A stretch of DNA of 64,000 bases, taken from assembly GCF_054482595.1 (NCBI RefSeq), contig NZ_CM137008.1; one strand, given 5' to 3'. Position 1 is the first letter of the stretch. Each line of letters starts with the position of its first letter. Positions 4,262 through 37,930 of this stretch are shown piece after piece. Position numbers and translations under genes: made by a program. The notes beneath the pieces are model-generated. The model was given only the letters and a program-made list of their open reading frames with translations, was not told the DNA's origin and did not search any database.

Positions 4262-4292
4262 GAAAGCATACGGGCGATGACAAATGCAAAAC

Positions 4293-4375
4293 TGCCTGAT
4301 GCGCTACGCTTATCATGCCTACAAAGATGCACGATCGAGTAGGCGGGATAAGGCGTTTACGCCGCATCCGGCATG
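4293..4375. repeat. REP (repetitive extragenic palindrome) element
   Basis: gcctgatgcgctacgcttatca ... ggataaggcgtttacgccgcatccggca; canonical REP sequence. Confidence 0.8.
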
Positions 4376-4444
4376 GAAAACGCGTACTTTGTTATCAATC
4401 TGGGGCCAGCAAATGCTGGCCTGATTTGTTCTTGAGGGAAGACT

Positions 4445-35418: not shown

Positions 35419-35632
35419 AAAATCACAGGGCAGGGAAACCTGCCCTTGTTTCAGCGCGCTTTTAGAGCACGCATTTTTTCATACTCTAAATAATTCGAGT
35501 TGCAGGAAGGCGACAAGAGAGTGAATCCCCAGGAGCTTACATAAGTAAGTGACTGGGGTGAGCGAACGCAGACGCAGCACATGCAACTTGAAGTATGACG
35601 AGTATAAGGCCCGACGATACAGGACAAGAGAC

Positions 35633-36712
35633 ATGTCTAAGATTTTTGATTTCGTAAAACCTGGCGTAATCACTGGTGATGACGTACAGAAAGTTTTCCA
35701 GGTAGCAAAAGAAAACAACTTCGCACTGCCAGCAGTAAACTGCGTCGGTACTGACTCCATCAACGCCGTACTGGAAACCGCTGCTAAAGTTAAAGCGCCG
35801 GTTATCGTTCAGTTCTCCAACGGTGGTGCTTCCTTTATCGCTGGTAAAGGCGTGAAATCTGACGTTCCGCAGGGTGCTGCTATCCTGGGCGCGATCTCTG
35901 GTGCGCATCACGTTCACCAGATGGCTGAACATTATGGTGTTCCGGTTATCCTGCACACTGACCACTGCGCGAAGAAACTGCTGCCGTGGATCGACGGTCT
36001 GCTGGACGCGGGTGAAAAACACTTCGCTGCTACCGGCAAGCCGCTGTTCTCTTCTCACATGATCGACCTGTCTGAAGAATCTCTGCAAGAGAACATCGAA
36101 ATCTGCTCTAAATACCTGGAGCGCATGTCCAAAATCGGCATGACTCTGGAAATCGAACTGGGTTGCACCGGTGGTGAAGAAGACGGCGTGGACAACAGTC
36201 ACATGGACGCTTCTGCACTGTACACCCAGCCGGAAGACGTTGATTACGCATACACCGAGCTGAGCAAAATCAGCCCGCGTTTCACCATCGCAGCGTCCTT
36301 CGGTAACGTACACGGTGTTTACAAGCCGGGTAACGTAGTTCTGACTCCGACCATCCTGCGTGATTCTCAGGAATATGTTTCTAAGAAACACAACCTGCCG
36401 CACAACAGCCTGAACTTCGTATTCCACGGTGGTTCCGGTTCTACTGCTCAGGAAATCAAAGACTCCGTAAGCTACGGCGTAGTGAAAATGAACATCGATA
36501 CCGATACCCAATGGGCAACCTGGGAAGGCGTTCTGAACTACTACAAAGCGAACGAAGCTTATCTGCAGGGTCAGCTGGGTAACCCGAAAGGCGAAGATCA
36601 GCCGAACAAGAAATACTACGATCCGCGCGTATGGCTGCGTGCCGGTCAGACTTCGATGATCGCTCGTCTGGAAAAAGCATTCCAGGAACTGAACGCGATC
36701 GACGTTCTGTAA
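35633..36712 (+). CDS. fbaA: Class II fructose-bisphosphate aldolase
   Basis: ORF 35549..36712; start at MSKIFDFVKPGVITGDDVQKVFQVAKENNFALPAVNC... giving 359 aa. Confidence 0.97.
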   Translation: MSKIFDFVKPGVITGDDVQKVFQVAKENNFALPAVNCVGTDSINAVLETAAKVKAPVIVQFSNGGASFIAGKGVKSDVPQGAAILGAISGAHHVHQMAEHYGVPVILHTDHCAKKLLPWIDGLLDAGEKHFAATGKPLFSSHMIDLSEESLQENIEICSKYLERMSKIGMTLEIELGCTGGEEDGVDNSHMDASALYTQPEDVDYAYTELSKISPRFTIAASFGNVHGVYKPGNVVLTPTILRDSQEYVSKKHNLPHNSLNFVFHGGSGSTAQEIKDSVSYGVVKMNIDTDTQWATWEGVLNYYKANEAYLQGQLGNPKGEDQPNKKYYDPRVWLRAGQTSMIARLEKAFQELNAIDVL

Positions 36713-36737
36713 GTCATTCCTTTCTGCTTATCTCAAG

Positions 36738-36760
36738 GCCCGCTCTGCGGGTCTTTTTTT
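36738..36760 (+). terminator. Intrinsic terminator of fbaA
   Basis: gcccgc-tct-gcgggt followed by CTTTTTTT. Confidence 0.65.
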
Positions 36761-36774
36761 CGCCAAAAGAAAAA

Positions 36775-36895
36775 TTGCCTGATGCGCTACGCTTATCAGG
36801 CCTACACGTATCCTGCAATATATTGAATTCGCAGGTTTTTGTAGGCCGGATAAGGCGTTCACGCCGCATCCGGCATGACAAAGCGCACATTGATA
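36775..36895. repeat. BIME (two inverted REP units)
   Basis: gcctgatgcgctacgcttatcaggcctac ... gtaggccggataaggcgttcacgccgcatccggca. Confidence 0.8.
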
Positions 36896-36905
36896 TCTGT
36901 CTGAG

Positions 36906-36936
36906 CCCCGCTCTGCGGGGATTTTTTCGCCAAAAG
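36906..36936 (+). terminator. Second copy of the fbaA terminator-like element (direct repeat)
   Basis: ccccgctctgcggggattttttcgccaaaag, near-identical to 36738-36769. Confidence 0.5.
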
Positions 36937-37069
36937 CAAGGTGATACAGATGAGAAATCTGTGATCTATTTGGCAAAATTATGCTTTATTGTTTACCCTT
37001 GTCAGACTGCCCGTCATAAGGCGGCGGAGTGTATTTCTCCATTTTGAGTCAGTTGAAAAGGAATATTGA

Positions 37070-37930
<861 letters not shown>

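Follow-up and report, generated by a model that had tools for sequence, protein, structure and literature searches.

A BIME-1 element bracketed by copies of the fbaA terminator in Escherichia, and a proposed role of terminator hairpins in BIME-1 integration

In the 64,000-nt stretch of DNA analyzed here (contig NZ_CM137008.1 of assembly GCF_054482595.1, hereafter the window), two similar hairpins with T-runs stand in series between the fbaA and mscS genes and bracket a pair of inverted REP units, and the question is how such an arrangement could have arisen. A sequence-only reading of the window described it as a direct repeat of about 30 bp (36738-36769 and 36906-36936) and took it for the footprint either of a REP/BIME insertion with target duplication or of a local duplication. 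From the comparisons described below, we consider it highly probable that a BIME-1 element integrated at the fbaA terminator in an Escherichia ancestor and that the target was duplicated, giving the order terminator, BIME-1, terminator, and we propose that the integration was directed by the terminator hairpin. The features of the region are collected in Table 1.

Table 1. Features of the fbaA-mscS region, with positions in the window
Feature	Position	Strand	Remark
fbaA CDS, class II fructose-bisphosphate aldolase	35633..36712	+	RefSeq annotation of a 100%-identical match; ORF end 36712
Copy 1 of the direct repeat, fbaA intrinsic terminator and tail CGCCAAAAG(A/C)AA	36736..36772	+	Hairpin 36735-36755, T-run 36754-36760
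BIME-1 (RIP/RIB-type) element	36773..36903	+	Between both repeat copies
Y-type REP, inverted orientation, ends CTAC	36777-36805		Part of BIME-1
L linker with the 17-mer CTGCAATATATTGAATT and an IHF-type site (putative)	36806-36840		Part of BIME-1
Z1 REP, starts GTAG	36841-36875		Part of BIME-1; palindrome 36845-36874
Right outer motif, 28 nt	36876-36903		Part of BIME-1
Copy 2 of the direct repeat, predicted terminator and tail CGCCAAAAGCAA	36904..36939	+	Hairpin 36906-36920, T-run 36922-36927; runs on into native mscS upstream sequence
mscS upstream block (TGTGATC..TTGGCAAA..TTGTTTACCCTT), presumed promoter and 5' UTR	36960..37069	+	Conserved across genera, about 50 outgroup spacers
mscS CDS, small-conductance mechanosensitive channel	37070..37930	+	ORF; RefSeq annotation

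The direct repeat noticed earlier is real, and its true ends lie 2-3 nt further out on each side (copy 1, AGGCCCGCTCTGCGGGTCTTTTTTTCGCCAAAAGAAA; copy 2, AGCCCCGCTCTGCGGGGATTTTTTCGCCAAAAGCAA). The fbaA gene, 1080 bp long in K-12, has its stop codon at 36710-36712, which is followed by 23 nt up to copy 1, and 130 nt separate copy 2 from the mscS start at 37070. Global alignment of the copies yields 32 identical positions out of 37, four substitutions, and a gap of 1 nt within the T-run; the repeat finder reports them in two halves, with a spacing of 167/168 nt. The ungapped part of the alignment scores 16.5, compared to a mean of 9.3 (sd 1.0, maximum 13) for 200 dinucleotide-preserving shuffles of the segment 36500-37200. 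The shared loop (TCT) and the shared 15-nt tail TTTTTTCGCCAAAAG exclude the convergence of two unrelated terminators.

In the terminator scan and in folding, the hairpin of copy 1 has nine pairs and a free energy of -14.1 kcal/mol, and that of copy 2 has six GC pairs and -11.6 kcal/mol, each followed by a T-run. The scan of the region found four terminator sites against 0.9 expected, both copies being among them. That two terminators stand in series ahead of mscS, as stated earlier, is a structural prediction. Two changes in copy 2, G38 to C and T52 to G, turn a G.U pair into a C-G pair, and a third one, C53 to A, breaks the neighbouring pair. The hairpin and T-run of copy 1 are identical to the lone terminator of the short allele described below, and the tail differs solely at position 36770, which is A in the window and C in the short allele and in K-12, so that the K-12 copies differ by one substitution less. 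Moreover, alignment of the spacers identifies copy 1 as the ortholog of the lone terminator of the outgroup species.

The sequence between the copies conforms to the definition of BIME-1, namely a Y-REP, an L linker with an IHF site, and a Z1-REP (PMC3333891). The Y and Z1 palindromic units are in opposite orientation and carry the CTAC ... GTAG tags, and inverted arms at 36792-36806 and 36840-36854 bear out the pair of inverted REP units that the first reading had placed here. The 17-mer CTGCAATATATTGAATT of the linker (36813-36829) is common to 61 other instances, with which the element aligns over its full length, and a putative IHF-type site, recognized by its similarity to the consensus, is found on the minus strand (AATTCAAtataTTG versus WATCAANNNNTTR, one mismatch). 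The element is extragenic and dispersed in many copies, with at least 40 matching pieces and a single unit per locus here; all 5,425 matching E. coli genomes have a match to 80% or more of the 133-nt element query, including the genomes without the element at fbaA-mscS. The Rfam 'sRNA' family ES036/CssrF matches 36798-36840 on the minus strand with 42.5 bits, above the gathering score, and our reading is that this family was built on the BIME-1 linker repeat. Another Rfam match in the window, to the Vibrio antisense RNA AS5 (35479-35598, plus strand), is below threshold (38.9 bits, gathering 96) and lies upstream of or overlaps the fbaA start.

The aligned instances show that the element extends beyond the REP pair, to approximately 150-170 nt, and that its outer motifs are inverted copies of each other (left GAGACTGATGACAAACGCAA..., right ...TTTGTCAACAATCTGAG); these are presumably the published A/B motifs of BIME-1. 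The inserted unit at fbaA-mscS is the entire 131-nt BIME-1 including the right outer motif, and so comprises more than two REPs. Elsewhere in the window, a second BIME-1-like element is found at 4290-4402, with a Y-REP, a short linker of 17 nt, a Z1-REP, and both outer motifs partly present; the hairpin GGGGCCAGCAAATGCTGGCC (4404-4421, -16.4 kcal/mol) follows it directly, with no matching hairpin on its left.

Is the element polymorphic, and which state of the locus is ancestral? Of 5,425 complete E. coli genomes, 3,725 proved to have the long allele in a search with a 601-nt query across the spacer, and the remaining genomes (about 1,700, or 31%) gave a two-piece match spanning 434 bp, exactly 167 bp shorter. 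The same span of 434 bp was obtained for all 12 short alleles in an evenly spaced sample. Two short alleles were followed through their sequence: a single terminator, the same as copy 1 through the T-run, is joined straight to ...CGCCAAAAGCAAGGTGAT, with no REP, and the flanking repeat is thus present once at the unoccupied site. A query built on the short-allele junction gave 4,130 matches and was non-discriminating, since the long allele matches over 80% of the query as well.

The outgroups were scanned with the MscS protein in one genome per species, which yielded 80 loci (E. albertii, E. fergusonii, and Salmonella are not among them). In about 50 non-Escherichia species of Enterobacteriaceae with fbaA upstream, belonging to Citrobacter, Klebsiella, Kluyvera, Raoultella, Enterobacter, Kosakonia, Leclercia, Phytobacter, and other genera, the spacer is 174-194 bp long, compared to 357 bp for the long allele of E. 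coli, and the alignment shows one orthologous GC hairpin with a T-run at the same place in each. Therefore the state with one terminator is ancestral, and the order terminator, BIME-1, terminator is derived. Alleles with one terminator and no BIME, which the sequence-only reading had proposed to look for among E. coli strains, thus exist both in E. coli and in these outgroup species; of the two origins it had allowed, insertion agrees with the empty alleles, 167 bp shorter and devoid of REP, and plain local duplication does not.

Within the genus, two divergent lineages labelled E. coli (L005 and L006, with mscS 95% and 89% identical to that of the window) have the short allele. E. whittamii has the insertion with identical junctions, its second hairpin being decayed to GGCCGCCAGGATAGAGGGG and the T-run and tail retained. 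In Escherichia sp. E1V33 the terminator is present three times and BIME-1 twice, and Tandem Repeats Finder reports a 169-bp period in 2.2 copies with 96% identity; the repeats thus recombine unequally. The same junctions in E. coli, E. whittamii, and E1V33 point to a single origin. Thus, judging from these alignments, the insertion appears to be old and to have arisen once, and the repeats now seem to constitute a small unstable tandem locus. In L006 ('E. coli' strain E69, CP089930.1), fbaA is 99.3% identical to that of the window and the adjacent mscS just 88.9%, which suggests a recombination boundary in or beside the spacer.

These data bear on the status of the short alleles within E. coli. 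It is quite possible, if somewhat short of probable, that the long allele is ancestral in this species and that the approximately 1,700 short alleles arose from it by secondary, precise deletion between the 36-nt repeats, through recombination or slippage; such deletions would be compatible with the proposed origin of the element. Since the long allele occurs in E. whittamii and E1V33 as well, it seems to predate E. coli; the number of copies does change at this locus, as in E1V33; and the divergence of the copies at about 11-14% of aligned positions suggests an old duplication. In addition, the two short alleles carry GTCATTCC just after the fbaA stop, as does the long allele of the window, and K-12 and three other Escherichia lineages carry GATATTCC; however, inter-lineage recombination could equally account for this haplotype pattern. 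Two further observations speak against the deletions: the divergent lineages L005 and L006 are short, and the lone copy is similar to copy 1 at every diagnostic position, so that each crossover would have been confined to the last 18 nt or so.

The order of events could also be reversed, with a local tandem duplication of the terminator first and BIME-1 landing between the copies later. This would formally yield an identical final structure, and hairpins are the targets of BIME-1 at other sites. At that, two events are postulated where one suffices, and similar flanking duplications with boundaries exactly at the element ends occur at five other loci. Moreover, none of the 12 sampled short alleles has two terminators without a BIME, an arrangement expected to span 470 bp and named in the first reading as a sign of a functional tandem terminator rather than of an insertion. 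We therefore give the reversed order hardly any credence, and retain insertion with duplication of the target.

Taken alone, fbaA-mscS is an ordinary case of BIME-1 presence/absence polymorphism, and the mechanism has to be sought at other sites. An exact-match search of metagenome contigs with the linker 17-mer retrieved 61 near-full BIME-1 instances from 19 distinct sites, a sample rather than a full genome census. Just beyond the outer motifs, many of these sites have a site-specific hairpin on both sides (for example, GGGTGGTAACACCACCC ... GGGTGGCAACGCCACCC), and the loop sequences demonstrate that its orientation is direct, not inverted. The similarity of the left and right flanks scores 15-16.5 at four of the 19 sites and 10.5 at two more, compared to a mean of 6.7, a 99th percentile of 10, and a maximum of 11 in 342 mismatched site pairs. 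Overall, the host's own hairpin stands on both sides of the element at 6-7 of the 19 independent sites, and on a single side or on neither at about half of them. At seven sites both ends of the element adjoin a strong hairpin, with a free energy of -9 kcal/mol or lower, and at about 15 of 18 sites this holds for one end or both. The spacing is constant across sites, with 22-26 nt between the end of the left copy and the Y-REP and 28-30 nt between the Z1-REP and the start of the right copy.

Comparison of filled and empty alleles at individual sites gives the same pattern. At metE-ysgA, the empty site of E. coli contains one hairpin CCGGGTGGTAATACCACCCGG followed by a T-run, and in a contig of a related Escherichia the order is hairpin, BIME-1, hairpin, T-run. 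The rsmS-mscK site is empty in O157 strains and filled in 3,880 genomes, with the hairpin on both sides; mog-satP is empty in K-12-type strains and filled in 467 genomes with both hairpin copies; and at yhaC-rnpB the hairpin is likewise duplicated, its left copy being partly decayed. At all four sites the flanking repeat is single in the empty allele, and what has been duplicated is the stem-loop, a segment of about 19-28 nt with its limits at the stem feet. The T-run is easiest to recognize at metE-ysgA, and there it stands behind the right copy alone, so that the element becomes part of the 3' untranslated region. The exception is nagD-asnB, where the nagD hairpin remains single: BIME-1 begins at its 3' foot, and 12 nt of the T-run have been replaced; hence duplication is not obligatory. 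This case fits a variable resolution of the integration event, and is also compatible with a process associated with the replication fork. With fbaA-mscS included, five of the six clean filled/empty pairs thus show a second copy of the terminator hairpin.

Several other candidate pairs were dropped. The short allele of katE-chbG carries a different hairpin; polymorphism in this spacer is complex, with the hairpin TAAGGTCAC...GTGACCTTA in the short allele (strain PEC301) and, in the long one, an additional REP together with a BIME-1 that lies between GGCGGCG...CGCCGC hairpins. Neither allele of fruA-psuK is empty: in K-12, two copies of the fruA hairpin (GGGCAGAAATTTCCTGTCC and GGGCAGATTATTTTCTGCCC) surround a sequence of about 125 nt that resembles a heavily decayed BIME-1 (TTTGATGAGCGCAAAG..., ...AATGTAATTTTATGAATTT...), and an intact BIME-1 occupies this place in 1,194 other genomes. 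At yjgR-lptG and rnr-rlmB the short alleles are not empty, as a portion of the element or one REP remains in them. In two E. coli alleles examined at yjgR-lptG the Z1 REP is missing and the linker and outer motifs are retained, and rnr-rlmB has a single REP in some alleles and a full BIME-1 in others; these variants are internal rearrangements of BIME-1, not gain or loss of the whole element.

The inverted outer motifs, together with flanking direct repeats that are absent from the empty sites, recall a classical cut-and-paste miniature transposon that makes a fixed staggered cut and leaves ordinary target-site duplications. We find this very unlikely for BIME-1. The duplications have no constant length (about 19, 20, 20, 28, and 36 nt, and none at nagD-asnB), and are longer than the target-site duplications of a few bp familiar from bacterial insertion sequences and miniature transposons. 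The duplicated segment always coincides with the stem-loop, whatever its length, and a length that tracks the stem-loop does not fit a fixed staggered cut. Rather, it suggests structure-directed breakage or joining at both feet of the palindrome, followed by fill-in.

The junctions at fbaA-mscS have to be reconciled with this geometry. The right one is typical, copy 2 starting 28 nt after the Z1-REP. The left one is atypical: the left outer motif GAGACTGATGACAAACGCAA is missing, and the 21 nt due in its place are the terminator's own TCTTTTTTTCGCCAAAAG(C/A)AA. Because the left outer motif is replaced by terminator sequence, the repeat is 36 nt long, compared to about 19-28 nt at the other sites, and copy 1 stays a complete terminator. 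The junction itself is shifted 17 nt further downstream than typical, to GCCAAAAGCAA. This host tail matches the left end of the element, GACAAACGCAA, at nine of 11 positions, and the two lie at an equal distance from the hairpin. The possibility that the Escherichia tail CGCCAAAAGCAA is a remnant of the left motif of BIME-1 was rejected, since it is collinear, with no change of length, with TTGCCATTTCAA of Citrobacter and relatives, and the tail is therefore ancestral. At 36761-36772 of the window, Escherichia has CGCCAAAAGCAA versus (T)TGCC(A/T)TTTCAA in most other genera, and this cluster of adjacent changes makes the tail resemble GACAAACGCAA; the repeated terminators near rnpB are likewise preceded by the 10-mer CCAAAAGCAA. 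The left join may have used the resemblance between GCCAAAAGCAA and GACAAACGCAA, or the left outer motif may have been overwritten afterwards, in a short gene conversion with copy 2 as donor. In either case the 36-nt repeat and the missing left motif need an extra step, which counts against the proposed account. Microhomology at the right junction (ATCT / AATC) was considered as evidence of template switching, and was discarded as too weak and inconsistent.

We propose the following course of events. The ancestral fbaA-mscS spacer, about 190 bp long, contained one intrinsic terminator, and the short allele has the structure of this unoccupied site. Integration of BIME-1 at the terminator in an Escherichia ancestor would have been directed by the extruded hairpin, with breakage or joining at its 3' foot on one strand and at its 5' foot on the other, and repair synthesis would then have copied the whole stem-loop, and thereby the target. 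The 36-nt repeats may now drive unequal exchange, one, two, or three copies of the terminator being observed. A candidate enzyme is the REP-associated Y1 transposase TnpA-REP, which cleaves single strands 5' or 3' of hairpins, and whose covalent complex can be resolved by a free 3'-OH (PMC3333891, PMC8266576). On the other hand, Y1 transposition of the IS200/IS605 type, the model for REP mobility, produces no target duplication (PMC2817692), which counts against the proposed course of events. As a generalization, the feet of extruded intrinsic-terminator hairpins may be the specific integration sites of BIME-1, the whole stem-loop (about 19-36 nt) usually being duplicated; we put this forward tentatively, as a proposal that falls just short of probable.

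What could the insertion mean for the two genes? In the predicted structure, fbaA transcripts should still end before the BIME, because copy 1 keeps its T-run, unlike the hairpins upstream of the element at typical sites, and copy 2 would intercept any read-through before the mscS promoter region, which the insertion left untouched. With both features in place, the insertion would be nearly neutral, and its effect on the expression of fbaA or mscS is probably small. The conserved block ahead of mscS begins beyond copy 2 and so was not disturbed by the insertion; its promoter function is presumed from conservation. The mscS-like genes without fbaA upstream in Trabulsiella, Citrobacter, Pseudocitrobacter, and Buttiauxella keep this block (..TGGCATATTC..TTTTTGTTTACCTTTAA..), which is probably a conserved promoter or leader of the mscS-like channel family. 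A promoter-like site on the minus strand (37005-36978; CTGACA, 16 nt, CATAAT; 10/12) is located inside the block and faces copy 2 and the BIME; with one such site found versus 0.7 expected, it may be due to chance. A search for published data on the fbaA 3' end or the mscS promoter gave nothing usable in the searchable literature.

The pair of terminators with the BIME could also be a selected regulatory device, that is, a tandem terminator or an attenuator of mscS. Both copies score as terminators, the double change of G.U to C-G preserves pairing in copy 2, and Naville and Gautheret list BIME-plus-terminator elements upstream of mscS as candidate attenuators (PMC2965389). However, the arrangement is missing in 31% of the E. 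coli genomes and in all outgroup genera, in E. whittamii the second hairpin is destroyed and the rest retained, the conserved mscS block starts downstream of copy 2 and leaves the latter outside any leader, and the same architecture is found behind unrelated genes. We regard such a device as unlikely. The second hairpin is dispensable, as its absence from almost a third of E. coli and its decay in E. whittamii demonstrate, and, together with the position of the conserved block, the same facts argue that any regulatory role is dispensable.

The structure of BIME-1, its binding of IHF, and its location at the 3' ends of operons are known, and polymorphism of its presence among isolates has already been reported (PMC3333891, PMC1187871). 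The mechanism of REP/BIME dissemination continues to be called unresolved (PMC3116915, PMC8266576), including in reviews up to 2021-2024. In the literature searched, we found no description of terminator hairpins duplicated around BIME-1; the primary papers of 1991 and 1997, which were outside that scope, may have noted flanking repeats. We know of no in vivo REP/BIME insertion that has been characterized. If the generalization proposed above is true, it provides the first consistent insertion signature of the E. coli REP/BIME elements, defines their target and joining geometry, and accounts for the location of BIMEs at the 3' ends of transcription units. The recurrent duplication of hairpins bears on the mechanism of REP/BIME spread and is the part worth following up. 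The reproducible footprint, with defined inverted ends, hairpin feet, and the hairpin on both sides, is a concrete target for transposition traps and for in vitro assays of TnpA-REP, and gives a simple rule to call filled and empty sites across pan-genomes. It also indicates how insertions can stay nearly neutral, since a working terminator is predicted to be rebuilt distally, and the resulting repeats create small, unstable copy-number loci.

Finally, the fbaA-mscS element can be compared with several known systems. It is similar to the BIME-1 (RIP/RIB) elements of E. coli in its REP types, CTAC/GTAG tags, and L linker, and in being a single extragenic unit at the 3' end of a transcription unit. 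Unlike the usual BIME-1, it has its left outer motif replaced by the terminator T-run and tail, it is bracketed by a 36-nt direct repeat with a complete terminator on each side, and it was amplified in tandem in one species. The REPIN / RAYT model, with TnpA-REP as a Y1 HUH transposase, likewise assumes a mobile REP doublet and an enzyme that recognizes single-strand hairpins and cuts beside them; in contrast, transposition of the IS200/IS605 type involves no target duplication and a short target sequence, whereas here the target is a host terminator hairpin that is usually duplicated whole.

Target duplications of miniature inverted-repeat elements of the Correia/ERIC type are typically short and fixed, unlike the duplication of 19-36 nt observed here, which is equal to the stem-loop. 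The Correia elements of Neisseria and ERIC otherwise share with BIME-1 their short non-coding intergenic sequence, inverted ends, flanking direct repeats, and an internal IHF site, and the target duplication of IMU is 5 bp (PMC3184786). The arrangement behind fbaA further resembles rrnB T1-T2, the tandem intrinsic terminators, in that two signals consisting of a hairpin and a U-tract follow a highly expressed gene in series. Unlike at rrnB, the second copy at fbaA-mscS appears to be a by-product of insertion: it is located 168 nt away, absent in a third of strains, and decayed in the sister species.
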